From a virus (lineage: Duplodnaviria > Heunggongvirae > Uroviricota > Caudoviricetes): 11,692 bases of DNA. Below the pieces are notes generated by a model. The model saw nothing but the letters and a program-made list of their open reading frames with translations, was not told where the DNA came from and made no database searches. The position numbers were made by a program, and so were the translations under genes. Positions 1-11,692 of the stretch are shown here, piece by piece; the stretch's first letter is position 1, and each line of letters begins with the position of its first letter. Where the stretch lies: positions 1 through 11,692 of the IMG/VR virus record IMGVR_UViG_2778261223_000024. The stretch is one strand, 5' to 3'.

Positions 1-1362
1 ATGTTTAAACCGGAACTCCTTTCCCCGGCGGGAACGCTGAAAAATATGCGTTACGCTTTCGCTTATGGCGCAGATGCTGTTTATGCGGGCCAGCCGCGTT
101 ACTCCCTGCGTGTGCGCAACAACGAATTCAACCACGAAAATCTTCAGCTCGGCATTAATGAAGCCCATGCGCTGGGGAAAAAGTTTTATGTCGTGGTCAA
201 CATTGCACCGCACAACGCCAAGCTGAAAACCTTTATCCGTGACCTGAAACCGGTGGTGGAAATGGGGCCGGATGCGCTGATTATGTCTGATCCAGGGCTG
301 ATTATGCTGGTGCGTGAGCACTTCCCTGAAATGCCGATCCACCTCTCGGTGCAGGCTAACGCCGTGAACTGGGCGACGGTGAAATTCTGGCAGCAAATGG
401 GACTGACCCGCGTGATCCTCTCTCGCGAGCTGTCGCTGGAAGAGATTGAAGAGATTCGTAATCAGGTGCCGGATATGGAGATCGAGATCTTCGTTCACGG
501 CGCGCTGTGCATGGCCTACTCCGGTCGCTGCCTGCTCTCTGGCTATATCAACAAGCGCGACCCGAACCAGGGCACCTGCACCAACGCCTGCCGCTGGGAG
601 TACAACGTCCAGGAAGGGAAAGAAGATGACGTTGGCAACATCGTACACAAGTACGAGCCGATTCCGGTGCAAAATGTTGAGCCGACGCTGGGTATCGGCG
701 CACCAACTGACAAAGTGTTTATGATCGAAGAAGCCCAGCGTCCGGGCGAGTATATGACCGCGTTTGAAGATGAGCACGGCACTTACATCATGAACTCGAA
801 AGATCTGCGCGCCATCGCCCATGTAGAACGCCTGACCAAAATGGGCGTGCATTCGCTGAAAATCGAAGGCCGTACCAAATCTTTCTACTATTGCGCACGC
901 ACCGCACAGGTTTATCGTAAAGCTATCGATGATGCCGCTGCGGGCAAACCGTTCGATACCAGCCTGCTGGAAACGCTGGAAGGTCTGGCGCATCGTGGCT
1001 ATACCGAAGGTTTCCTGCGTCGTCATACTCACGACGATTATCAGAACTACGAATACGGTTATTCAGTTTCTGACCGCCAGCAGTTTGTTGGTGAGTTTAC
1101 CGGTGAGCGCAAGGGCGACCTCGCGGCGGTAGCGGTGAAAAATAAATTCTCCGTTGGCGACAGCCTTGAGCTGATGACGCCGCAAGGCAACATTAACTTT
1201 ACCCTTGAGCACATGGAAAACGCCAAAGGTGAAGCTATGCCGGTCGCACCAGGCGATGGTTATACTGTGTGGCTCCCGGTCCCGCAGGATCTTGAGCTAA
1301 ATTACGCGCTCCTGATGCGTAATTTCTCCGGGGAAACCACGCGTAACCCCCACGGTAAGTGA
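1..1362 (+). CDS. yegQ: U32-family peptidase-like protein YegQ/TrhP (tRNA U34 hydroxylation), complete 453 aa
   Basis: ATG at 1..3, stop TGA at 1360..1362, uninterrupted 453-codon frame. The protein reads as the E. coli YegQ/TrhP U32-family protein (recall, not searched), and it sits directly upstream of cyaR as in E. coli K-12. Confidence 0.9.
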   Translation: MFKPELLSPAGTLKNMRYAFAYGADAVYAGQPRYSLRVRNNEFNHENLQLGINEAHALGKKFYVVVNIAPHNAKLKTFIRDLKPVVEMGPDALIMSDPGLIMLVREHFPEMPIHLSVQANAVNWATVKFWQQMGLTRVILSRELSLEEIEEIRNQVPDMEIEIFVHGALCMAYSGRCLLSGYINKRDPNQGTCTNACRWEYNVQEGKEDDVGNIVHKYEPIPVQNVEPTLGIGAPTDKVFMIEEAQRPGEYMTAFEDEHGTYIMNSKDLRAIAHVERLTKMGVHSLKIEGRTKSFYYCARTAQVYRKAIDDAAAGKPFDTSLLETLEGLAHRGYTEGFLRRHTHDDYQNYEYGYSVSDRQQFVGEFTGERKGDLAAVAVKNKFSVGDSLELMTPQGNINFTLEHMENAKGEAMPVAPGDGYTVWLPVPQDLELNYALLMRNFSGETTRNPHGK

Positions 1363-1393
1363 TTAATTTCGATTATTTTTCCCGGATGGAAAA

Positions 1394-1415
1394 TTCTTAG
1401 AAACCGATCACATAC
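1394..1415 (+). promoter_or_regulatory. Candidate CRP-cAMP site of the cyaR promoter
   Basis: TTAGA-N6-TCACA at 1397..1412 (one perfect half-site) centred about 42 bp upstream of the predicted CyaR 5' end, with a TATCAT -10-like hexamer at 1434..1439. CyaR is known to be CRP-activated. Confidence 0.4.
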
Positions 1416-1446
1416 AGCTGCATTTATTAAGGTTATCATCCGTTTC

Positions 1447-1533
1447 GCTGAAAAACATAACCCATAAAATGCTAGCTGTACCAGGAACCACCTCCTTAGC
1501 CTGTGTAATCTCCCTTACACGGGCTTATTTTTT
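1447..1533 (+). ncRNA. cyaR: CyaR (RyeE) Hfq-binding small RNA, about 87 nt
   Basis: The sequence GCTGAAAAACATAACCCATAAAATGCTAGCTGTACCAGGAACCACCTCCTTAGCC...CCCTTACACGGGCTTATTTTTT matches CyaR as I recall it. It contains the CCTCCT anti-Shine-Dalgarno motif and ends in a GC stem plus T-run terminator (about 1509..1533). Placement between yegQ and ogr is as in K-12. Confidence 0.85.
1507..1533. other. P2-type attachment-site core (prophage/host junction) overlapping the CyaR terminator
   Basis: The reverse complement of 1507..1533 is AAAAAATAAGCCCGTGTAAGGGAGATT, which matches the 27-bp P2 att core as I recall it. It sits where host DNA meets the ogr-proximal prophage end. Confidence 0.55.
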
Positions 1534-1596
1534 ACGTACAACAAATTGAAATAAAAGGATTTATTTCTGGTCACGTCCACACATTGACCACATCGA

Positions 1597-1633
1597 CAAA
1601 AAAAGCCCCTCGACTGAGGGGCTTCCTGTTTCT
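1597..1633 (-). terminator. Rho-independent terminator downstream of ogr (possibly bidirectional)
   Basis: Perfect 8-bp stem AGCCCCTC/GAGGGGCT (1604..1611 and 1616..1623) with loop GACT. On the minus strand it is followed by an 8-T run (the complement of the A-run at 1597..1604). It lies immediately 3' of the ogr stop. Confidence 0.6.
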
Positions 1634-1635
1634 AA

Positions 1636-1854
1636 TTACATCCACATAATTTGCTGCCCTGACGGCAACGGGTGCGGCCTTACGGCGTGGACTTCTCCCG
1701 GCTTCACGATGTATCGCTGTACCGACTCATAAGTGATGAACGTGGCGCTGCAATTCACGTTCTGACACTGGTGATAACGCTCTTTTGTCGTGTCAGTGAT
1801 ATAGCGACTTGTACGCGCATGTGCGGCATGCTGGCATAAAGGACAATGAAACAT
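1636..1854 (-). CDS. ogr: Ogr, zinc-finger late-gene transcription activator (72 aa)
   Basis: The internal ATG at 1854..1852 gives MFHCPLCQHAAHARTSRYITDTTKERYHQCQNVNCSATF..., a Cys4 zinc-finger protein matching P2 Ogr as recalled. There is a GAGGTG Shine-Dalgarno upstream. The 93-aa track ORF begins at an upstream TTG and is probably an over-extension. Confidence 0.9.
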   Translation of the reverse strand: MFHCPLCQHAAHARTSRYITDTTKERYHQCQNVNCSATFITYESVQRYIVKPGEVHAVRPHPLPSGQQIMWM

Positions 1855-1888
1855 CGCGAGCACCTCTTCCGGTTTTGTTGATGGTGCC

Positions 1889-1917
1889 ATTTTAGTTAAT
1901 TTACCCTTATAAAACAA
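1889..1917 (-). promoter_or_regulatory. Candidate sigma70 promoter for ogr
   Basis: On the minus strand, TTGTTT (-35, 1917..1912), a 17-nt spacer and TAAAAT (-10, 1894..1889), about 35 nt upstream of the ogr ATG. Read by eye only. Confidence 0.3.
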
Positions 1918-1935
1918 ACAGATAAAAACAAAGCA

Positions 1936-3099
1936 TCACTCATCATCTTCTGTTTCGTACTCCACATCAGAAAGCCTGACCTCAAGCTCTAAGGACGTCG
2001 TGAAGCCGCTATTATTCAGAAAATGTGTCACCTTAGTGATTGTCCAGTCCTGCTCGTCTATGACGCGCTTAAAGCCTGATACTTTGACCGGCGTTTCCGT
2101 GTAAATATCTGCCCGACCGGTAGCCAGACTGATGGAAAACTCCGCAACGCCCCGTTGCAGCTTATCCCACTTCGCCTGAGCGGCGCGCATGGCCTGCGCT
2201 TTCGTGGCATATACCGTGGTCAGGGCAAAAACGTTGTCAGCTTCACCGGCCATGTATTCACCTTCGCGCGCTTCCGGTACTTTTGGCGCTTTCTTCTGCG
2301 TGACTGGTTTCGCTTTCGGGTGCTCCAGTGCGCGCAGGTGTTTTTCTTTCTTTTTGCGTTTCAGTTTTACCTTCTGCTTTTGCGGCTTCGGGTCTTTGGT
2401 GTGAAGCCACTTTGCCGTTACGCCGGTATAGGCTCCACGGTCAGCAATCGCAAAATGGTGGCGGTCGCCGTCGCTGCGGGTTATGGTGACCTGCGGGATT
2501 TTTTTACCGCTGGCCGTCACCCCCTGCCCCGCTTTGAGAAACAACAGTTTTCCCATTTTTACCGAGACCTCACCGCCGTTGCGTTCTGCAAGACGGGTCA
2601 GGAATTTCGCATCAGACTCCTGCGACTGGTCGATGTGCGGGATTTTAATTCCGGCCAGTGACGGAGCGACACTGGCTTCCAGCCTGTTACGGGTGGCTAT
2701 CGCCTCAACAATCGCACCGAGCGTGGTGTCATGCCAGGAGCCTTCCCGGCGGGAATTGAGCGTCCCGCGAAAATCTGCACTCCGGGCGCGGATGGTGACC
2801 ACATCCGGTGCGCCCCGGTGTTCAACCTCATCAACGGTAAATTTCCCTTTGCATACCAGGGCAAAACCTTTCCAGCCGATATACACCGTCAGGACAGCGC
2901 CACGAACCGGCAGCCCGACCTGCCCGTCGGCATCGTTCAGTTCAATATCAAGCTGGTCAGCCTCAAAGCCCCGGTTATCCGTCAGGGTCATGCTCATCAG
3001 ACGGTCGCTGATATTGCCGGTAATATCCCTGCTGTCGAGCATCAGCATGTAATCCGGCGTCAGCGTACTGCCTGCATCAAATGTCAGCGCATCCAGCAT
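1936..3099 (-). CDS. D: Tail protein D (late control gene D / Phage_GPD family), 387 aa
   Basis: ATG at 3099..3097 overlaps the U stop (TAATG). Length and position are as in the P2 FETUD operon. It contains a Lys-rich linker. Confidence 0.9.
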   Translation of the reverse strand: MLDALTFDAGSTLTPDYMLMLDSRDITGNISDRLMSMTLTDNRGFEADQLDIELNDADGQVGLPVRGAVLTVYIGWKGFALVCKGKFTVDEVEHRGAPDVVTIRARSADFRGTLNSRREGSWHDTTLGAIVEAIATRNRLEASVAPSLAGIKIPHIDQSQESDAKFLTRLAERNGGEVSVKMGKLLFLKAGQGVTASGKKIPQVTITRSDGDRHHFAIADRGAYTGVTAKWLHTKDPKPQKQKVKLKRKKKEKHLRALEHPKAKPVTQKKAPKVPEAREGEYMAGEADNVFALTTVYATKAQAMRAAQAKWDKLQRGVAEFSISLATGRADIYTETPVKVSGFKRVIDEQDWTITKVTHFLNNSGFTTSLELEVRLSDVEYETEDDE

Positions 3100-3578
3100 T
3101 ATCCCGCCCCCGTCATACCCGTGAATCTGGTCGCCATACTGCCAGCCTTACCGATGAGCGATTCCGCCTGTTTACCGATATCGCCATAAAGCGCGGCCAG
3201 TGATTCATCAACGCGGGTGAGCGACAGCGTAAAATCAATTTTCCGGGGTGTGCCGTCTGCAAAGAAAATACTCCCTGTTTCACTCACTCTGCTGATGACA
3301 TACATGCCGTAAATCATGCCGGTGCCATCCAGCAACGGCCACGCCCGGCCTTCCTCTGCCATCAGCCTGAGCGTGGTCATCGTCAGCTTCCCGCCGGTCA
3401 GTTCGGGATAAAGCACGCCGGCAAGCGTCATGTTTTCCTCACCCACACCGAGAAACTGAAAGGCATCCCGTTTACCGATACGGGAATTTGACGGCCAGCG
3501 ATAATCTGATTCGCGCTGCATGGTCTGGTGTGGCAGTGTCTGGCGCATAAAAACAAACATACCTAACGCGAGCATCAT
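3099..3578 (-). CDS. U: Tail protein U, 159 aa
   Basis: ATG at 3578..3576 preceded by a strong AAGGAGG Shine-Dalgarno that lies inside the 3' end of T. Length and synteny match P2 gpU. Confidence 0.85.
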   Translation of the reverse strand: MMLALGMFVFMRQTLPHQTMQRESDYRWPSNSRIGKRDAFQFLGVGEENMTLAGVLYPELTGGKLTMTTLRLMAEEGRAWPLLDGTGMIYGMYVISRVSETGSIFFADGTPRKIDFTLSLTRVDESLAALYGDIGKQAESLIGKAGSMATRFTGMTGAG

Positions 3579-3592
3579 TTTTCGTCACCTCC

Positions 3593-6040
3593 TTAACCGT
3601 CATGCATCATGCTGGCACGGGCGCGCGCACGTTTATCCCGCTCGTATTTTTCGAGCGCATCCTGTAACTGGCGGTCGAGCTGAGTCCCCGGCGCAGTACC
3701 GCCCGTCAGGCTGATGTGATATTCGTTTTTACTCTGGTCCACATAAGAGCGGCCAGCCGGTGCCGTGACCGGCTGATAAGCCTGATAGCCTGCATAAGAG
3801 CTGGTCGCCGGAATATAACCACCGGTGCCATACGTGGCGGCATTAGTCCTTGCGGCGGTCTGGTCAAGTGTGTCTGACTCTTTGTTGATAACACCGAGTT
3901 TTTCCAGTACCCAGTCAATACCACTGCGCAGTTTGTTGAACGCATTAAGCGGCAGCATCAACGCGTCAGCCAGTGCCTGCCCGAACATGACGCCCGTGTC
4001 ACGGCAACGGTTCAGGGTGTCCTGTGTGGCTTTAACCGGGGCAATCAGGTTTTTAAACCACTGCCACGCGGCCTGTAACTTTTCGCCCAGCCAGTCAAAC
4101 ACCGGCTTAAGTGGCGTGAACAGTTCCCCCACCGGCGCAAATGCCGCTTTCAGCCCTTCAACCACACCGCCGAAGAATGCGCTGACAGGCTCCCAGTATT
4201 TACGGATAAGCAACGCCCCGGCGACAATGGCGGCCACCACGGCCACAACCGGCCAGCTAATCGCACCGATGGCCGTCATAACAGCACTGCCAACCGTCGT
4301 GAAGATTGCCCCCATTGCGCCTGCTGCCGCGATAATAGCATTGATGCCGGTGATAACCGGCCAGGCTACGAGGCCAATGGCACCAATGATGCCAGTCAGC
4401 GCCAGTGCACCACCGGCAATAATGCCGATGGTTGACGCCAGTGATTTGTTTTTCTGGATCCAGCCGTCGAGTTTTAACACATACATTGTGGCCGTCTGCG
4501 TGAGCTTACGCAGTGCGCCTTCCTGCTGGTCAAACAGGTCAGTCCCCACCGCCTCATAAGCGGACTGAAACTCCTTAAAGTCACCGCCGAGATTGTCCTG
4601 CATGATATTTACCAGCTCTGCGGTCTTCCCGTCTGAGACTTTAAACGCAGCGGTCAGTTTGTCCAGCTTTCCGGTTGAGGCGGCAGTCATCAGCACAGCG
4701 GCGGATGAGCTGGCCTCCTCCCCGAAAATGGTTTTCATGTATTCAGCCTGCTGGGCAGTACCGAGCCGGTTTTTCTCAAAACTGGCCTGCATTTCTTTCA
4801 GAATGGTAAATACTGGTCGGGTATTCCCCTTAGTGTCTGAGGTTTTCACGCCAAGCTCTTTGAGTGCATCCCATGCTTTTCCCGTCGGTGCCTGCAGGCG
4901 ACTTAACACGGCACGGCTTCCCGTCCCCGCCATTGAGCCTGTGATTTTTGCATCATGCAGCGCCCCGACCATTGCGGCGGTTTCTTCAATGCTGACACCG
5001 GCATTTTTTGCCACAGGTGCGGCATAGGTCAGCGCATCGCTCATGCCGTCAAAATCGGCGGCAGTTTTGTTCATCGTCATGGAGAGAACATCCCCGATAT
5101 GAGCGACCTTATCGTTTGAAAGCTGAAAGGCGGATTTCATCCCCATCAGCAGGGCGGCGTTTTCTTCCATCGTGCGGCGGTTCGCCAGCGCCATATTCAG
5201 CGTGACCGGCGTTGCCGCCTGAATGGCATCAACATCCCCACCGGCTTTCGCAATGATAATCTGTGCACCGGCTGCATCATCCGCCGAGGCGGCAGTATTG
5301 TCACCGAGCTGGCGCGCCTGCTTGCGGAGTGCGGCCATTTCGGCGGAGTCTTTTGCCACACCGAGCACGGCCTGCAATTCTGAGTTTTTCTGCGCAAACT
5401 CATAACCGGGCATCAGTATCTTAACACCGGCCATCGTTCCCGCCGCCGCAATCCCCACTCCGGCAGCGCCTACTGAGGCCATATTTCCGGCCAGTTCCTT
5501 TCCTGCCTGATAACGCTGTTTGACTGCGTTAAGTTTTGCCTGTTGTGCACTGACACGCGCCAGTGCATCGCGCTGACGGTTAAGTTGTGCGGTGGTTTCA
5601 CTGATACGGTTTTTCAGCCCCTGCTCATCATGTGCAAGATTGCGGGTATTAATTCCCACAGCGGCCAGTTCCCGCTGCTGGCGTTTAACAGAATCCGTCA
5701 GGCGGTTATATTTCGCCTGTAAGTCCTCCGCCGCACGCTTTGCGGATTCCAGCACTTTCGCCTGAGCACGGGTTGGACGTTCGGTATTTTTAAACTGTGT
5801 GGCAAGGGCTTCGGCCTCCTGCCGTGCCTTTTCAAGTGCATGACCAGTCACGGCGAGCTGTGCACTGGTCTTGCGGAATCCCTCAATACGGGATGCGTGA
5901 CCGTTCAGCTCGCGCAGTGATTTTTGTGTTTCCCGGATATCCCCCGACAGCGACTTACTCGCTGTACGGATGGATTTAAACGGGCGGGATGCCTGGTCAA
6001 CAGCCCTGAGCAATACCTGTAATTTTACATTGTTACTCAT
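3593..6040 (-). CDS. T: Tail tape-measure protein T, 815 aa
   Basis: Long Ala/Gln-rich coiled-coil N-terminal half and Gly/Ala/Ile-rich hydrophobic segments, typical of tape-measure proteins. The 815-aa length is that of P2 gpT. The start ATG at 6040..6038 overlaps the E' stop. Confidence 0.9.
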   Translation of the reverse strand: MSNNVKLQVLLRAVDQASRPFKSIRTASKSLSGDIRETQKSLRELNGHASRIEGFRKTSAQLAVTGHALEKARQEAEALATQFKNTERPTRAQAKVLESAKRAAEDLQAKYNRLTDSVKRQQRELAAVGINTRNLAHDEQGLKNRISETTAQLNRQRDALARVSAQQAKLNAVKQRYQAGKELAGNMASVGAAGVGIAAAGTMAGVKILMPGYEFAQKNSELQAVLGVAKDSAEMAALRKQARQLGDNTAASADDAAGAQIIIAKAGGDVDAIQAATPVTLNMALANRRTMEENAALLMGMKSAFQLSNDKVAHIGDVLSMTMNKTAADFDGMSDALTYAAPVAKNAGVSIEETAAMVGALHDAKITGSMAGTGSRAVLSRLQAPTGKAWDALKELGVKTSDTKGNTRPVFTILKEMQASFEKNRLGTAQQAEYMKTIFGEEASSSAAVLMTAASTGKLDKLTAAFKVSDGKTAELVNIMQDNLGGDFKEFQSAYEAVGTDLFDQQEGALRKLTQTATMYVLKLDGWIQKNKSLASTIGIIAGGALALTGIIGAIGLVAWPVITGINAIIAAAGAMGAIFTTVGSAVMTAIGAISWPVVAVVAAIVAGALLIRKYWEPVSAFFGGVVEGLKAAFAPVGELFTPLKPVFDWLGEKLQAAWQWFKNLIAPVKATQDTLNRCRDTGVMFGQALADALMLPLNAFNKLRSGIDWVLEKLGVINKESDTLDQTAARTNAATYGTGGYIPATSSYAGYQAYQPVTAPAGRSYVDQSKNEYHISLTGGTAPGTQLDRQLQDALEKYERDKRARARASMMHDG

Positions 6041-6460
6041 TCGTGTTTCCGCTTCGCCGGAGCGCCTTTTCGCGCCATGTGATGAGTTCGGTCAGGCTCA
6101 TGGGATACAGTTCTGATGGCGGCCAGTGAAATATCACTGCCACATCCGCCATCAGGTCATCGACCGACAGATTTTTCGGAAACGTCACTGCACCGAGTTC
6201 GGCGACAAAAAACCGACCACCTTACCGGCCAGCGCCACAAGGTCAGGCAGTTCCAGCGCGGCGACTTCCTGCTCGGTCAGCATCGGTGCCGTCATGCGCG
6301 GCAGCACCTTAATCAGTGCATCGACTTCAGAGTTCGCGACCGCAGCCAGACTGACACCGCGCAGCGTCCCGGCACTGGGTTTCATCAGCGTGACCTGTTC
6401 GATGACCTGCTCACCACGCTTGACCGGATTGTCCAGGGTAATCACATTTTCTTTGTTCAT
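6033..6460 (-). CDS. E': E+E' tail assembly chaperone made by programmed -1 frameshift (predicted 142 aa)
   Basis: Slippery heptamer T_TTT_TTG (minus strand, 6212..6206) in E frame GGT-TTT-TTG. After the -1 shift the frame stays open for 57 codons (VAELGAVTFPKNL...RRSGNTNE) and stops at TAA 6035..6033, overlapping the T start (ATGAGTAA). The predicted 142-aa total matches P2 E+E' as recalled. Confidence 0.7.
6185..6460 (-). CDS. E: Tail assembly chaperone E, 91 aa (zero-frame product)
   Basis: ATG at 6460..6458, stop TGA at 6187..6185. The protein ends ...GKVVGFLSPNSVQ and carries the slippery site near its 3' end. Confidence 0.85.
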   Translation of the reverse strand: MNKENVITLDNPVKRGEQVIEQVTLMKPSAGTLRGVSLAAVANSEVDALIKVLPRMTAPMLTEQEVAALELPDLVALAGKVVGFLSPNSVQ

Positions 6461-6489
6461 GGTTTTCTCACTTCTTAATCGGGGGTTAA

Positions 6490-6510
6490 CCGGTCAGCCT
6501 GGCTGACCGG
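6490..6510 (-). other. Intercistronic perfect palindrome / RNA hairpin between FII and E
   Basis: CCGGTCAG-CCTGG-CTGACCGG (8-bp stem, extendable to a 10-bp near-perfect palindrome) between the FII stop at 6518 and the E start at 6460. No T-run follows on the transcribed strand, so it is not a classic intrinsic terminator. Confidence 0.5.
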
Positions 6511-6517
6511 ATGAAAA

Positions 6518-7036
6518 TCACAGGCCGATATTGCGGCGGTGTTGCTCCAGCCGGTCGACGCCGTTCACCTTCTCAATCATGTTGATGGTGTCGATTTCGA
6601 CCAGCTCCTTACCGTCCATCGTCAGCCGGAAATAGGTGCAGACCACGGAGATTTTCGACTCGGTGTCTTCTCCCTGTTTACCCTCGCCGGTGTCGATTTC
6701 TTTCTGACGTCCACGCATGACCACTTCGACGGCCACCGTTTCGCCGGTATCGTCGCGCTGGTAAGAGCCTGCAAAACGAATCGGCACGGCATCCACACCG
6801 GTTGAGGCGTAAAGCTCCCAGATAACCGAATCCGGGAAGCCACCGAGCGACCACTCCATTGACAGCGCATCGTCATCAAGGCCGAGGTCTACCGGTGCGC
6901 TGCCGTTCATCCCCGCACCGCGATAGTTTTCGAGCTTACGGGTCAGTTTTGGCAGCGTGACGGACTTTGCAACGCCCTGATAGCTGTAGCCGTTCAGAAA
7001 GACGTTCATTAACTTGAGTTTGCGCGGCATTGCCAT
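6518..7036 (-). CDS. FII: Tail tube protein FII, 172 aa
   Basis: ATG at 7036..7034 with a GGAG Shine-Dalgarno in the 12-nt gap after the FI stop. Length and position match P2 gpFII. Confidence 0.9.
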   Translation of the reverse strand: MAMPRKLKLMNVFLNGYSYQGVAKSVTLPKLTRKLENYRGAGMNGSAPVDLGLDDDALSMEWSLGGFPDSVIWELYASTGVDAVPIRFAGSYQRDDTGETVAVEVVMRGRQKEIDTGEGKQGEDTESKISVVCTYFRLTMDGKELVEIDTINMIEKVNGVDRLEQHRRNIGL

Positions 7037-7048
7037 CGGTCAGGCTCC

Positions 7049-8239
7049 TTAATTGCTGTTAACCGAGGTGACCAGATTTGCCAGGTATTTATCGGTAATA
7101 CGCTGGCGCAGGGTCAGGTTTTCAAGAGGAGGCACCGGAGTATAGTCGTAGTCGATATACAGTTTTCCGGCCTTGAGGGTTTCCGCATCGTTGGATTCTT
7201 CGCTGAACCAGCAGGTCGCATCCACGATATAGCCGTTTGTTTTCAGCTCACGGAATTTGGCATTGATGCCGTCAACGATGTCGCGAATCAGCGTTGCGGT
7301 GATGGGCTTGTCCACCGCCCACATGTGCGCCTCAGCCATCGTGTCGGCCAGCACCTGCGCGGTGCGGGTGTAGTTTTCAAAGAGGAACAGCGGGTCATCA
7401 GAGCAGGTACGGTTACCCCAGAAGCGGAAACCGTCGCGGCGAATCAGCGTAGTGACGCCTGACTCATTAAGCAGGTCAGCATCGGTGCCGGACTCCTGCA
7501 AATCCCAGAATACAGAGGCGCTGATGCCGGTAACACCGTTCACCCCAACGTTGGACAGTGTTTTATGCCAACCCTGCTCCTGGTCGATTTTAGCGCGCAG
7601 ACCCAGCGCACGGGCGGTGGCATACGCGGTGGCGGTGGTACTGGTGACCGTATCCCATGCGAGGAAATCCGGCCAGATGACCATCAACTCACGCTGGCTG
7701 AAATTCTGGCGGTAGGCTTTCACCTCGGAAATGGTCTTACAGCCCCATGCGCTGATATATCCGAAAGCACGCAGCTTCTGACAGACGGATGCCAGTGCAA
7801 CAGCCACCTCTTTGGTATCCAGTCCCGGCACACCGAGAATACGCGGTTTAACACCGGTTACCGACTCCGCCGCCAGCAGGGCTTTCAGTCCGGTGTACTG
7901 ACCGTTTTCGTCGGTGGTGCCGATGATATTGGAAACGGTCTGCGCGAGTTTCGTTTCCTCGTCGTCGCCGGTGCCGTCTTCCACACGCACGACAACGGTG
8001 ACCGGTTTTGACTGGTCGGCGATGGCCTGCAACGATGCCGCCAGCGTGCCTTTTTTACCGGCCTTTGCAATTGCGCTCTGCACATTGGTAATCAGCACCG
8101 GTTTATTGAGGGGGAAGGTTTCCGCATCCGCATCGCTGGCCGTGCAGACCATGCCGACAATGGCCGTGGATACGGTGGAAATGACGCGGGTGCCGTCGTT
8201 AATCTCCAGCACCTGCACGCCGTGATGATAGTCACTCAT
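7049..8239 (-). CDS. FI: Contractile tail sheath protein FI, 396 aa
   Basis: ATG at 8239..8237 with a GGAG Shine-Dalgarno about 8 nt upstream. The 396-aa length and the position as first gene of the F-E-T-U-D operon match P2 gpFI. Confidence 0.9.
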   Translation of the reverse strand: MSDYHHGVQVLEINDGTRVISTVSTAIVGMVCTASDADAETFPLNKPVLITNVQSAIAKAGKKGTLAASLQAIADQSKPVTVVVRVEDGTGDDEETKLAQTVSNIIGTTDENGQYTGLKALLAAESVTGVKPRILGVPGLDTKEVAVALASVCQKLRAFGYISAWGCKTISEVKAYRQNFSQRELMVIWPDFLAWDTVTSTTATAYATARALGLRAKIDQEQGWHKTLSNVGVNGVTGISASVFWDLQESGTDADLLNESGVTTLIRRDGFRFWGNRTCSDDPLFLFENYTRTAQVLADTMAEAHMWAVDKPITATLIRDIVDGINAKFRELKTNGYIVDATCWFSEESNDAETLKAGKLYIDYDYTPVPPLENLTLRQRITDKYLANLVTSVNSN

Positions 8240-8333
8240 CCGTTTAACTCCGTGGTTAATGGGTGCAACTATTTTCCGTTGGGTAGTACATGAGACGCTA
8301 TTTGACCTGGCTGGTCAGTGGATGAAACAACAG
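8240..8333 (-). promoter_or_regulatory. Region expected to hold the Ogr-dependent late promoter (PF-like) for the tail operon
   Basis: About 95-bp leader upstream of FI and downstream of a terminator. It contains the dyad TGACC-N5-GGTCA and an imperfect TGT-N12-CCA element. P2 late promoters are reported to carry a TGT-N12-ACA dyad near -55. The exact site is not resolved by eye. Confidence 0.3.
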
Positions 8334-8363
8334 ATAAAGAAAAGGCGGGCAATCTGCCCGCCT
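8334..8363 (-). terminator. Rho-independent terminator after the 230-aa cargo gene
   Basis: Minus-strand stem AGGCGGGC/GCCCGCCT with loop AGATT followed by TTTTCTTTAT. It separates the cargo transcript from the FI late promoter region. Confidence 0.55.
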
Positions 8364-8498
8364 GTCCTGATTTGTACACACTCATTTTCCGACTGACAAT
8401 TTACATAGCCAAAACGCTATCAAATCTGACAGCCTGTTTTGAGCGAAGAGGAACCTGAGATTGTGGTATGCTAATTTATGGGGAGCAGGTCAATTGTA

Positions 8499-9191
8499 TT
8501 AGTTATCTTTTGGCCTTTCTTTATCCCATTTCTTTACAGTGGTCTGATACCACTCTTCACGTGCTCGTTGTTCCTCTGCTCTGTCACTTGAATTATAGTT
8601 GTCTGTTTTAATTTTTTTGCTTCCCTGGGAAATCGGCCTCCAGTCTTCTCTAATCTTTTTCATCTGCTCAGCTATCTGTGTCATTGGACTCCTTGCACCT
8701 AAGTAGCTAACCCCCTCGAAAGAAGCCATATCATAAGAATACTCATTCCGCTCTCTTTCAGTTGAGCCCGGCTGTTTAGACCAGCTAATACTAACAGAAT
8801 AAACTTGATCTTTAATCTGGTCATACTTACAAAGACTGCTGTTGAGGGAATGGCCGTTTTTCAATACGCTAACCTTGCTAAATGGTATACCTTTATTTTT
8901 TCTATGTTCTGCATTAACCAGTGGGGGATTAAATTCGACTTCAATATCATAGGCTGGGGCATTTCCGGTATTAGCAATATTGATATCAAAATAAAAAGCA
9001 GCCCAAGAATTTGGTTCAAGAGTCACAACGACATGAGGTTGAACTGATGCGTCAACCATCCTTTTTGTCTCGTCTGCTAATAGCCTTGTTACTCTCCACA
9101 AGAAAAATGTAGCAACTGCTGTTAGCAATGCTGCCAAAGCGGAGATAAGTGTACTTACTGTGTTTATATGCTCTGCGATAAATTCGATCAT
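8499..9191 (-). CDS. Hypothetical membrane-anchored protein, 230 aa (cargo gene 1); family not recognised
   Basis: ATG at 9191..9189 with an AAGGA Shine-Dalgarno 6 nt upstream. One hydrophobic helix at residues about 12..33 (TVSTLISALAALLTAVATFFLW), then a roughly 150-aa soluble domain and a highly charged K/E/R-rich C-terminal tail. AT-rich codon usage unlike the adjacent tail genes. Confidence 0.75.
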   Translation of the reverse strand: MIEFIAEHINTVSTLISALAALLTAVATFFLWRVTRLLADETKRMVDASVQPHVVVTLEPNSWAAFYFDINIANTGNAPAYDIEVEFNPPLVNAEHRKNKGIPFSKVSVLKNGHSLNSSLCKYDQIKDQVYSVSISWSKQPGSTERERNEYSYDMASFEGVSYLGARSPMTQIAEQMKKIREDWRPISQGSKKIKTDNYNSSDRAEEQRAREEWYQTTVKKWDKERPKDN

Positions 9192-9612
9192 GAGTTGTCC
9201 TTGGGGGCGTACTAATTGTTTTCAATACTAAAATAGCGCCGGGCTTGAAAAATTGCACACTTATGGTTCGATTTACCTCAACAGTTAAGGCTTCTACTTC
9301 CCCCATGCACCTCACCCAGCCCAAGACTGTATGAGGTCTGACAAAGAACTTCCTGACACTTGAAAACGAGGCAACGGCTAGGGTTTCTCGTAGGGCAAGG
9401 ATTGAATACGAAGCCTGTATATTGCTCCGCAAACGCTGCTGAGGGCAGTTTAAATGTTGGGCGTTTATGTAGCCTTTCACTCACCAGCATGAGTTCAATG
9501 TCTGTGAGTTACCGACAACAATATAAAGGGGGTGGCATCATCATATATCCAAGCTAGAGTCAAATCCTCTAACTGGTTTTATGATCAGTGTCAATTGTTT
9601 GATTATTGAACG

Positions 9613-9641
9613 TTTACGAAGCAGCACGGGAGCCATATAAC
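9613..9641 (+). promoter_or_regulatory. Candidate sigma70 promoter of the two-gene cargo operon
   Basis: TTTACG (-35, 9613..9618), 17-nt spacer, TATAAC (-10, 9636..9641). The predicted start near 9648 leaves a roughly 35-nt leader before the 9683 ATG. Confidence 0.45.
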
Positions 9642-9682
9642 TAATGGGCAGGTATAAGCCTGTATCACGAGGAATCAGTATA

Positions 9683-9862
9683 ATGGCTGATGATAAGACC
9701 AAAATCGGTACCCCTGACAATGATTTAATAAGTATCAAACAGGATTACGAGAGACGTGATTGGGCTGAAAAGTTTGGAGTTAGCGAGGCCAAACTTGTTC
9801 AAGCCGTACAGGCTGTAGGTCATTCGGCTAAGAAAGTACAGGCATGGCTTAAAGACCATTAA
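9683..9862 (+). CDS. DUF3606-like small protein, 59 aa (cargo gene 2)
   Basis: MADDKTKIGTPDNDLISIKQDYERRDWAEKFGVSEAKLVQAVQAVGHSAKKVQAWLKDH resembles the short DUF3606 family as I recall it (N-terminal MxDDKxK and a YExRxWxxKFG core); unverified. GAGGA Shine-Dalgarno 9 nt upstream. An alternative in-frame ATG at 9644 (72 aa) would lie upstream of the predicted transcription start. Confidence 0.7.
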   Translation: MADDKTKIGTPDNDLISIKQDYERRDWAEKFGVSEAKLVQAVQAVGHSAKKVQAWLKDH

Positions 9863-9868
9863 TATATG

Positions 9869-9893
9869 AGCGCCTTTCTAGGCGCTTTTTTCT
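9869..9893 (+). terminator. Intra-operon rho-independent terminator / attenuator
   Basis: Stem AGCGCC/GGCGCT (9869..9874 and 9881..9886) with loop TTTCTA followed by TTTTTTC, lying between the two cargo genes. Confidence 0.55.
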
Positions 9894-9914
9894 TTGTCCT
9901 TTGGGAGATGATTT

Positions 9915-10193
9915 ATGGCTAATAATTTATTTATTACTTACGACCTCATTAAAACGAAAGATTATGCGGCTGTGTATGATGCAATTAAATCTTTAGGAAA
10001 TTGGGCTTTAACAACTGAATCGAACTGGTATGTTAACTGTAGTTACTCTGCCGAGGATGCAGCCAAAATTGTGAGGGCGGTCATGGATAGTGATGATAAG
10101 CTTATTGTTGTAGACGCAACCAATAACTCAGCTTATTGGTACAATCTCTCAGATGAAGTTAGTAACCAAATTCTGACTGAGTGGAACAAGTAA
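9915..10193 (+). CDS. Hypothetical small protein, 92 aa (cargo gene 3); family not recognised
   Basis: ATG at 9915 with a GGGAGA Shine-Dalgarno 6-7 nt upstream, stop TAA at 10191..10193. The residue pattern suggests alternating strands and helices (LFITYDL / YAAVYDAIKSLG / WYVNCSY / AAKIVRAVM / KLIVVDA / AYWYNL), reminiscent of small ferredoxin-like folds; this is inference from primary sequence only. Confidence 0.7.
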   Translation: MANNLFITYDLIKTKDYAAVYDAIKSLGNWALTTESNWYVNCSYSAEDAAKIVRAVMDSDDKLIVVDATNNSAYWYNLSDEVSNQILTEWNK

Positions 10194-10195
10194 TT

Positions 10196-10220
10196 AAAGG
10201 GGGTGGGTAGCCCCCTTTAA
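10196..10220. terminator. Bidirectional terminator hairpin closing the cargo operon and the G transcript
   Basis: Perfect 8-bp stem AAAGGGGG/CCCCCTTT with a 7-nt loop, flanked by A/T-rich sequence on both sides. It sits where the plus-strand cargo operon and the minus-strand G transcript converge. Confidence 0.5.
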
Positions 10221-10396
10221 TTCAGAAACTATCATTACTGGGTTAATTCTTTCATCTTTGCTCCCTTGCTATATGTCCTGAAAGCGTCCTTTTTAGCCTT
10301 CTGCTCAGTATGTCCGGTAATGGCACAGAGCGGACTGCCAGATTAGGCTTTACTCTGTGCCATAGATATGTAATCTCACACCAGAGCTTATACAAC

Positions 10397-10924
10397 TTAT
10401 TGCGGCATTTCCGGCCATTCAGGATTTGCAGGATCCACACGACTGACCAAAACGCTGTAGCGTTCCCAAGCCTCCAGCCGTGTGCGCTCCTCCTCTGTTG
10501 CCATATTCAGCCTGACAGCGCGCTCCAGCGGCAAAATCACGGATTCAGCATCTGCAAGAAGTCTGGCTTTCCGAATTTCTGCCTGCTGTTGTAATTCCTC
10601 TGCCGTATAAATGCGTTTAATCACTTTGCCGTCCTTAAACATCCAGTTCCCTGAAATGTCCGCCCGTCGGTTAGCAGTAATATCCGGCACTTCAACAACA
10701 CTTAATCCATCCGGTCTGATAGCTGTCACATCCTTTTCTACATAGCGGATAATATTATCTTTGTCGTACGCTATTTTTATCGTGTCATCAGCAAAATACT
10801 TTTGTTCTTCGTACCAGTTCTTACCATCTTCTGTAAAAAACCAGACAACATCAAAGTCCTTTGTCAATTGATATTGTTCAACCGTTTTTGGATTACCTGC
10901 CGTTATATTTATCAAATGCTGCAT
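10397..10924 (-). CDS. G: Tail fibre assembly protein G, 175 aa
   Basis: ATG at 10924..10922 three nt after the H stop. The C-terminal ...[38 protein letters not shown] is typical of P2-type tail-fibre assembly chaperones, and the length matches P2 gpG. Confidence 0.85.
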
Positions 10925-10927
10925 AAA

Positions 10928-11692
10928 TTATACCTGCGCCACGTTGTACCATGTCCCGTTAATGTATTTCTGAACCGGTCTGTAATATACGCCACCAATG
11001 TTATCGGCAGAGTTTGAGCCGGTATCCTGAACAATAATGCCGGAATATACACACCCGGACGGTGCCTGATGTGTCCATGTCATGCCATTGTTCGCAGGTT
11101 TGTATGTGGCAGCACCACCAAGCCGGATATCCCGGACATAGCGTGAATCAAAATTACTATAGTTAGATGGTGATACCTGCCCGTTAACAGCAAAAGTGAT
11201 GCTGTTATCTGTATTTCTCTGACTGTAAAAATGCCAGCCTGCATCATCACCTAATTCAGCCACCACCGGACGACTTGCGTTTCCCCACAAATTGAATGCG
11301 GCTTCCTTCGTGGATGTATTGCTGCTGCTGACCGTGAACTTTTTCCCGCTACCGGCACGTACTTTGGTACTTGAGGCAATATCACCAGTAACACTCAGGC
11401 CATGCCCCATTGACACTCCGCCATTAGCGTTATTGATAGTCAGCGGCCTTAAACCGTTCCATGTCCCAAATTTATCACCAGAGGCCGTCAGCATTAAATA
11501 TGTGCTGCCACCATCATTCCTGATAAAGAATCCATAATTGCCATAAGCAATGCGCAGACCATTAGCACTGAGTAGACTGGCCCCCTGAATCTCCAGACAA
11601 CCAGTATCACTTAAATAAGTGATAGTCTTAATACTAGTTTTTAGACTAGTCATTGGAGAACAGATGATTGATGTCTTAGGGCCGGAGAAACG
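10928..11692 (-). CDS. H: Tail fibre protein H, C-terminal part (5' end lies beyond the window)
   Basis: Stop TAA at 10930..10928. The frame is open to the window edge (no stop in the 13 codons upstream of the first in-frame Met), so the gene is truncated by the window. Gly/Ser/Asn/Thr-rich beta-type composition, typical of receptor-binding fibre tips. Confidence 0.8.
   Translation of the reverse strand, partial: RFSGPKTSIICSPMTSLKTSIKTITYLSDTGCLEIQGASLLSANGLRIAYGNYGFFIRNDGGSTYLMLTASGDKFGTWNGLRPLTINNANGGVSMGHGLSVTGDIASSTKVRAGSGKKFTVSSSNTSTKEAAFNLWGNASRPVVAELGDDAGWHFYSQRNTDNSITFAVNGQVSPSNYSNFDSRYVRDIRLGGAATYKPANNGMTWTHQAPSGCVYSGIIVQDTGSNSADNIGGVYYRPVQKYINGTWYNVAQV

Follow-up and report, generated by a model that had tools for sequence, protein, structure and literature searches.

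The window analysed here is a stretch of 11,692 nucleotides (nt; positions 1 to 11,692 of IMG/VR virus record IMGVR_UViG_2778261223_000024, one strand), which by its gene content belongs to a P2-like (Peduovirus) prophage of Escherichia coli and represents its late region. Two small plus-strand genes form a unit in the gap that separates tail gene FI from tail gene G and corresponds to Z/fun, the classical cargo slot of P2. The first, which starts with the ATG at 9683 and runs to 9862, encodes a DUF3606 protein of 59 amino acids (aa) and is served by a Shine-Dalgarno sequence, GAGGA, at 9669-9673, 9 nt before the ATG. It is followed by an intrinsic terminator at 9868-9897, made of a stem-loop (9868-9887) and a T-run (9888-9897), and then by the second gene (9903-10193 with its own Shine-Dalgarno sequence), in which GGGAG at 9903-9907 stands 7 nt before the ATG of a 92-aa open reading frame (ORF) at 9915-10193. 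A hairpin at 10192-10222, with an A-tract, a GGGGG/CCCCC core and a U-tract, closes the unit, and beyond it about 35 codons from the 3' end of a tyrosine integrase gene remain on the minus strand (10222-10330). The two ORFs and their Shine-Dalgarno sites are present as an earlier note on this DNA had described them. We regard the unit as a horizontally mobile cargo ("moron") cassette in which a conserved terminator close to a stop codon limits a Cas2/VapD-like protein, and its anatomy is solid.

The 92-aa protein, which the earlier note had left unrecognised, can now be described as stand-alone and Cas2/VapD-like on the basis of its model fold, its invariant residues and the profile matches of its family. 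That family comprises 2388 clusters, and the gene is under purifying selection, with a ratio of nonsynonymous to synonymous divergence (dN/dS) of 0.08 between the window and the enterobacterial locus L009. The structure model is confident and has the ferredoxin-like strand-helix-strand-strand-helix-strand fold of Cas2, in which D10, invariant in 62 sequences, is placed at the end of strand 1 (residues 3-10), as the Asp of Cas2 is, and the likewise invariant S36 falls in the turn between strands 2 and 3. Pfam Cas2 matches were obtained for 17 of 97 diverse family members scanned singly (best E=8.6e-7) and were by far the commonest family match, while the window protein itself gave a full-length but sub-threshold match to PADLOC Cas2_II (E=0.019). 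The profile of the 92-aa family found no significant relative among PDB sequences, the second-ranked entry being BPSL1038 at E=0.13, below significance, with an S-x-W-Y turn aligned, and a Foldseek search of the viral predicted structures in BFVD gave no match at E<=0.001. We conclude from sequence and model together that the protein is likely a stand-alone member of the Cas2/VapD superfamily, formally below the Pfam threshold.

The comparison with characterised members of this superfamily bears on the putative active site. BPSL1038 of Burkholderia pseudomallei (PDB 7VXR) is a stand-alone Cas2/VapD-like DNase, and D10 of the 92-aa protein sits where Cas2, VapD and BPSL1038 all carry their catalytic Asp, with S36 in the strand 2-3 turn where BPSL1038 has SST, so that the pair mirrors the D11...SST site. 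Unlike BPSL1038, the spacing is D10(X25)S36 rather than D11(X20)SST, the model contains an extra strand pair, and the profile match falls short of significance. CRISPR (clustered regularly interspaced short palindromic repeats)-associated Cas2 (PF09827) likewise agrees in fold, in having an invariant Asp behind strand 1 and in a Ser conserved at the turn from strand 2 to strand 3, but the 92-aa family mostly lacks a CRISPR association, and the window itself contains no cas1 or other cas genes and no CRISPR array. Several family representatives of 200-260 aa consist of two tandem copies of the domain, an arrangement that fits a dimeric working unit and may be taken as an indirect hint of one. 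A scan of fusion proteins for partner domains returned one match, a 1507-aa protein with two copies of the domain together with CBM5/12 and Baseplate_J, and a phage structural protein may thus be another place where the domain is used as a module. The representatives with two copies are P0226, P0241, P0254, P0257, P0281 and P0339.

The hairpin with a T-run between the two genes, which the earlier note had described, was recovered by a terminator scan (5 sites found against 1.8 expected) and by folding. It has 8 pairs, 5 of them G-C, a 4-nt loop and the tail TTTTCTTTGT, which makes it a GC-rich stem-loop directly followed by a U-run, and the region folds at -16.5 kcal/mol (z=-2.7). It begins 5 nt past the DUF3606 stop codon, and its T-run ends 17 nt before the next ATG. 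We searched for a promoter belonging to the 92-aa gene alone and rejected the idea, as no plausible hexamers were found; the 27 nt between the end of the stem and the ATG leave no room for one, so that expression of the 92-aa gene depends on read-through. This supports the proposal of the earlier note that the internal terminator makes expression of the two genes unequal. Furthermore, the structure is conserved: in 11 of 12 enterobacterial loci the small ORF, of whatever kind, is separated from the 92-aa gene by a GCGCC/GGCGC stem with varying outer pairs, and in one of them (L072) pairing is retained through two wobble pairs. The stem of these loci begins 5-12 nt after the stop codon and is usually followed by a T-run, and a Shine-Dalgarno sequence comes within about 20 nt. 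The one locus of the 12 without a small ORF, from Yersinia (L080), is likewise without the hairpin.

The distance between stop codon and stem suggests how read-through could be set. In E. coli, terminator tR2 loses nearly all of its activity when it stands a few base pairs (bp) after a stop codon, where the trailing ribosome blocks folding of the hairpin, and reaches full strength only when more than about 30 bp separate the two (PMC4824070). With a stop codon 5 nt from the hairpin, a ribosome completing the small ORF should similarly hinder its folding. By this analogy the terminator should act mainly on transcripts whose small ORF is not closely translated, and translation of the small ORF probably governs how much transcription continues into the Cas2-like gene. 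The layout resembles ribosome-dependent attenuation, as in the pyrBI leader or the position effect at tR2, in placing a terminator a few nt after a translated ORF; it differs from pyrBI-type attenuation in that the upstream ORF belongs to a conserved family of folded proteins instead of being a leader peptide, and no alternative anti-terminator was found.

The assignment of the first protein to DUF3606 was borne out by a Pfam search, in which residues 4-57 matched the whole of PF12244 (model positions 1-54 of 54) at E=2.2e-18 and 66.2 bits, well above the gathering cut-off of 24.3. A longer reading of 72 aa from the ATG at 9644 was rejected, since homologues from other genera begin at MADDK and RefSeq annotates a gene of 180 nt. 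This gene too is under purifying selection (dN/dS 0.035 between the window and L004, an enterobacterial locus in which the module lies beside an integrase gene). In the predicted structure the N-terminus (about residues 1-20) is a disordered tail and the rest a UBA-like bundle of three helices, which suggests a module for binding proteins more than a classic DNA binder; the DUF3606 profile found no significant relative among PDB sequences. Elsewhere, none of the DUF3606 genes that were sampled has a Cas2-like partner; their neighbours are KGG stress genes, hemerythrin and CinA.

Upstream of the DUF3606 gene lies a conserved control block (9572-9682, plus strand), whose left boundary is the point at which homology with the integrase-adjacent module of L004 begins. 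It opens with an imperfect palindrome, ACTGGT-N6-ATCAGT (9572-9589), and contains a candidate -35 hexamer TTTACG (9613-9618), a candidate -10 hexamer TATAAC (9636-9641) and a small hairpin in the 5' leader (9648-9663). Relatives with 24% divergence in the 92-aa protein still have a well conserved block, and both hexamers are retained in two diverged relatives, L004 and the Pantoea locus L016, from which a real promoter at this position appears plausible. The whole intergenic region between the DUF3606 gene and the divergent 230-aa gene on its other side (9192-9682) spans 490 bp. A perfect TTGACA at 9594-9589 on the minus strand overlaps the palindrome and has no good -10 hexamer, and the 2002 database record of the P2-EC53 proviral Z-region puts the -10 of its ORF1 at around 9520, so that the leader would be some 330 nt long. 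An Rfam scan of 8200-10500 returned no RNA family except one sub-threshold hairpin match.

The strong hairpin that the earlier note had placed at the end of the unit was confirmed by folding, at -19 kcal/mol on the plus strand (z=-4.0) and -17 kcal/mol on the minus strand. Its U-tract reads UUUAAUU and is broken on both strands, and the terminator scan scored the minus strand. With an A-tract ahead of the stem and the U-tract behind it, the hairpin is best read as a terminator for both directions, not as a clean plus-strand one. Its left arm is also the second copy of a 21-nt direct repeat (9515-9535 and 10186-10206, 81% identical) that brackets the two-gene unit; we considered this repeat as a recombination scar and set it aside as probably due to chance, its exact core AAAGGGGGTGG being just 11 nt.

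The origin of the cassette is recorded just beyond this hairpin. Homology with the integrase-adjacent module runs from 9572 through both genes and the terminal hairpin to about 10324, and thus extends some 100 bp past the hairpin into a tyrosine integrase gene of the DUF6538 type, at its 3' end. The translation of the remnant, which ends in CAITGHTEQKAKKDAFRTYSKGAKMKELTQ at the stop codon, matches the C-terminus of the L004 integrase, which contains GAITGHTEQKAKTEAFRTYSKGAGMRELAE. The survival of this remnant indicates that the cassette once stood at the integrase-proximal end of another enterobacterial integrative element, from which it was captured. The sampled enterobacterial elements share the order capsid-E gene, gene of about 600 aa, small ORF, hairpin, 92-aa gene and convergent integrase, and by comparison with them the terminal hairpin appears originally to have been a terminator common to the convergent 92-aa and integrase genes.

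The pairing of the two genes was followed through 46 species-level loci of the 92-aa family from Proteobacteria, Acidobacteria, Campylobacterota, Desulfobacterota and a Flavobacterium assembly. In most Enterobacterales (L009, L017-L021, L072 and L076) the DUF3606 gene is replaced, about 60-190 nt upstream, by one for an unrelated and very basic protein of 41-42 aa with the consensus ...RSAITGQFV...AKRHP.TTV.ETIK... and no Pfam match. The elements that carry this protein contain a lambda-E-type capsid gene, a gene of about 600 aa of unknown function and a DUF6538-type integrase, and may be satellites or small prophages. In other lineages the gene before the 92-aa homologue encodes a DUF2188 protein, a 68-aa Myb-like protein or an 85-aa repeat protein, or there is none. 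The layout in which a small hydrophilic gene comes first and the Cas2-like gene second nonetheless recurs in many lineages, in some with a gap of only 8-21 nt, and the DUF3606 plus 92-aa unit has been kept in three settings, namely the Z slot of P2, a chromosomal islet of Pantoea and a position beside an integrase. Of the bicistronic unit that the earlier note had described, the compact arrangement of small ORF, hairpin and 92-aa gene therefore stands, being found in 11 of the 12 enterobacterial loci, whereas DUF3606 as the partner is restricted to one lineage. Repeat proteins are encoded at two of the loci: L004 encodes at 3282-3530 (minus strand) an 82-aa protein with "..AGS.LSQ.." repeats that is transcribed divergently from DUF3606 and has no significant Pfam match, and a deltaproteobacterial locus (L036) has a similar repeat protein at 3733-3990, directly upstream of its 92-aa homologue.

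The closest known parallel is VapX-VapD, a type II toxin-antitoxin module of Haemophilus, Neisseria and Dichelobacter, in which a small upstream ORF precedes a Cas2-like RNase toxin (PMC7180214); the VapD fold has been solved for the Helicobacter pylori protein. As in VapXD, the cassette places a small ORF right upstream of a Cas2-like ferredoxin-fold protein of about 90 aa in one transcription unit on mobile DNA, and solitary copies of the Cas2-like gene also occur. The likeness of the 92-aa protein to VapD is at the level of fold only, with no sequence match to VapD or VapX in Pfam, NCBIfam or PADLOC. Unlike VapXD, the cassette has a UBA-like DUF3606 bundle as its upstream protein and an intrinsic terminator between its genes, and the pairing is not conserved across the family, so that the consistent co-occurrence of a toxin with its antitoxin is wanting. 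The toxin-antitoxin or regulator-effector reading put forward in the earlier note thus finds no backing in co-occurrence, which is confined to one enterobacterial cassette among the 46 loci, nor in any toxin-antitoxin or defence profile match; given the Cas2/VapD fold and the VapXD precedent, a toxin-antitoxin function is possible but unproven.

We tentatively propose a model in which the cassette is a conflict-related module, a reading that we prefer while giving it somewhat less than an even chance and that is drawn mostly from anatomy. The conserved upstream block would drive rightward transcription, and translation of the first gene would yield an abundant small DUF3606 protein with a flexible tail and a UBA-like bundle. 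At the intrinsic terminator 5 nt past its stop codon a part of the transcripts would end, so that the 92-aa protein would be made only from read-through and at a lower dose. The role of the cassette would lie in the conflict between mobile element and host, with the Cas2/VapD-like protein, a putative nuclease by its fold, as the dose-limited effector and the DUF3606 protein as its possible partner, with which it may interact as VapX does with VapD.

Several results weigh against this model. The full-length match of the window protein to Pfam Cas2 (PF09827) has an E-value of 0.15 and 12.7 bits against a cut-off of 23.8 and is therefore sub-threshold, and NCBIfam and PADLOC profile searches gave nothing for any of the three proteins of the cargo, which includes the 230-aa protein (none below E=0.01 in PADLOC). 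The DUF3606 model is just moderately confident and its fold match weak. As for the promoter of the earlier note, a strict scan of 8200-10500 for sigma-70 sites, defined by -35 and -10 hexamers 16-18 nt apart, the -10 having A as its second and T as its sixth base, came up blank; TTTACG-17-TATAAC, conserved block and all, is the best plus-strand candidate at 9 of 12 consensus positions, and it lacks the conserved final T of the -10. Furthermore, when the DUF3606 profile was run on the 46 loci, it was found adjacent in the enterobacterial cassette only (the window, phage R18C, E. coli, Pantoea and L004-L008), and many family members have no small gene in front at all. Finally, between the window and L004 the DUF3606 gene has diverged little (synonymous divergence dS 0.41, nonsynonymous divergence dN 0.014), but in the 92-aa gene silent sites are saturated and dN is 0.16. 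Such unlike divergence of two adjacent genes implies a recombination joint between them, and this contrast in sequence argues against tight co-evolution; together with the swapped or absent partners, the divergence histories argue against an obligate co-evolving pair.

These same results lend themselves to another explanation, in which the two genes are unrelated cargo that happen to share a transcript, DUF3606 being a small hydrophilic protein of the stress type with a separate role, the 92-aa protein acting alone and the hairpin being merely the leaky terminator of the small gene. We consider this a serious possibility, if on balance a doubtful one. It accounts readily for the exchange of the upstream gene among unrelated families (DUF3606, the 41-aa basic protein, DUF2188 and others), for the absence of the hairpin where the small ORF is absent, for the occurrence of DUF3606 elsewhere without a Cas2-like neighbour and for the differing divergence histories. 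It accounts less well for the recurrence of the small-gene-first order in many lineages at gaps of sometimes 8-21 nt, for the joint presence of DUF3606 and the 92-aa gene in three genomic settings, and for the 27 nt after the stem that leave the 92-aa gene without an alternative promoter.

A more ambitious form of the preferred model would extend the conflict module beyond this cassette, such that a small ORF, a stop codon, a terminator 5-12 nt on and a Cas2/VapD-like gene together constitute an undescribed module of prophages and defence islands, with a translation-gated effector and an interchangeable partner. We hold this generalisation to be unlikely; if true, the output of a nuclease-fold effector would respond to the shut-off of translation during phage attack.

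The wider genomic context of the family, in a scan of the 122 nearest large neighbours at about 42 loci, is typical of mobile-element and defence-island DNA without a fixed partner. Recurrent neighbours are phage integrases (6), Thoeris ThsA/ThsB (2 loci), M78/CapP-type and S24 peptidases, and E1-E2/ThiF proteins with DUF6527, and single cases include the toxin YhaV, restriction endonucleases, TniB and a resolvase. In one Blastocatellia metagenome-assembled genome (MAG; L030, 3896-6293) the homologue lies about 60 nt upstream of thsB and thsA, and in four gammaproteobacteria it simply follows nrdAB. In a Flavobacterium sp. assembly (L025, 4001-4279) and a Bacterioplanoides MAG (L060, 4001-4282) it stands between cas3 and cse1 of a type I-E operon, the only 2 of the 46 family loci inside a cas operon.

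These two loci raise the question of whether the 92-aa protein is a decoy of Cas2 with a counter-defence or CRISPR-modulating role, one that binds Cas1 or regulates type I-E systems, for instance by blocking the acquisition of spacers against the prophage. The Cas2-like fold and motifs, the position between cas3 and cse1 in two genomes and the fact that the protein is phage-borne would all suit such a role, and E. coli carries a type I-E CRISPR-Cas system. We nevertheless find it improbable, as the two loci beside CRISPR genes are closely related to each other, most members occur in genomes or settings without nearby cas genes, and the protein matched no anti-CRISPR family and nothing significant among viral predicted structures.

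Slightly less probable still is that the 92-aa protein serves the DUF6538-type integrase as a directionality or maintenance factor and became a passenger in P2 once the integrase was lost. The gene does lie tail-to-tail with the integrase in the sampled enterobacterial elements, with a terminator common to both, and the remnant is kept in the window. The pair, however, is intact and 99-100% identical in about 100 E. coli genomes and in R18C, a viable phage, none of which has that integrase, and outside Enterobacterales integrases make up just 6 of the 122 nearest neighbours; a convergent orientation is moreover unusual for excisionases. That the ORFs and hairpins are random features of non-coding cargo DNA, as the shortness of the ORFs and their omission from the original P2-EC53 record might suggest, is refuted by the strong Pfam match, the family of 2388 clusters, the dN/dS values far below 1 and the confident model of the 92-aa protein.

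The conflict-related model also has to be seen against the setting of the cassette. The minus-strand late genes of the window are D, U, the tape measure gene T, E, the tail tube gene FII and the tail sheath gene FI (7049-8239); on the far side of the cargo the tail-fibre assembly gene G (10397-10924) is followed by part of the tail fibre gene H. A U32-family peptidase gene (1-1362) and the late-gene activator Ogr (1636-1917, minus strand) at the left end indicate that the window takes in the prophage's right end together with the host gene next to it. The FI-G gap has a GC content of 37-46%, against 57-59% in the tail genes, and holds one further gene of the same cargo allele, divergent on the minus strand (8499-9191), for a 230-aa protein with an N-terminal membrane helix. 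This is ORF1 of P2-EC53, matches phrog_11802, a phrog of unknown function, at E=2e-145, and ends in a terminator of its own (8343-8363, minus strand; 9 pairs, 7 of them G-C, then a T-run). A 234-aa gene upstream of the DUF3606 gene of Yersinia ruckeri was compared with it as a possible relative and proved unrelated. RefSeq names the three cargo genes "DUF8453 domain-containing" (the 230-aa gene), "DUF3606 domain-containing" and "hypothetical".

The stretch 8240-10400 is 98.7% identical to the viable phage R18C and 98.3% identical to the 2002 record "P2-EC53 proviral Z-region", while in the remaining P2-like phages only its flanks align. Among 5426 complete E. coli genomes the full stretch occurs in 99, the two-gene unit in 102 (about 1.9%, besides phage R18C) and the 230-aa gene in 105; the 230-aa gene and the pair occur together in 99 of these genomes and also in Pantoea. 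The P2-EC53 record annotates the 230-aa ORF alone, probably because in that record (L001, AJ512682, 1487-1653) the DUF3606 frame is broken over two frames by a frameshift or sequencing error. In Pantoea leporis (L016, 2209-4428) the whole three-gene cargo, corresponding to 8440-10327 of the window, is present at 93-94% identity outside any P2 prophage, flanked by tyrosine recombinase gene fragments on one side and an acetoin-pathway operon on the other, with an additional insertion of about 310 bp at window position 9417-9419.

The Z/fun slot is a recognised hot spot (PMC9122126), specifically for defence genes (PMC13586616), and the main text of these two papers does not mention the present allele; a motif search on the morons of R18C, which include the two small genes called "hypothetical" there, gave nothing (PMC6823313). 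A literature search for DUF3606 found the name in two papers only, the R18C note being one of them. In occupying the slot between FI and G the cassette is comparable to other Z/fun cargo alleles, such as fun(Z) of P2, ORF1 of P2-EC53 and the R18C morons. The DNA itself was thus already in the databases, the slot was known as a hot spot and DUF3606 was annotated; what is new is that a "hypothetical" 92-aa family can be assigned to Cas2/VapD, that small ORF, terminator and Cas2-like gene follow a conserved layout, and that an integrase remnant reveals where the cassette came from.

P2-like prophages keep their anti-phage genes in a few hot spots, and many of the cargo alleles found there are still called "hypothetical". 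As the family is large and turns up repeatedly next to integrases, Thoeris, CBASS-type regulators and type I-E cas genes, one functional result on this cassette would provide an annotation for thousands of genes and, for the first time, a functional context for DUF3606; otherwise it would be one more uncharacterised moron, and little of what is described here would greatly surprise a specialist. The analysis provides a concrete handle on the allele, which is a stand-alone Cas2/VapD-like protein encoded behind a terminator that should respond to the position of the ribosome.

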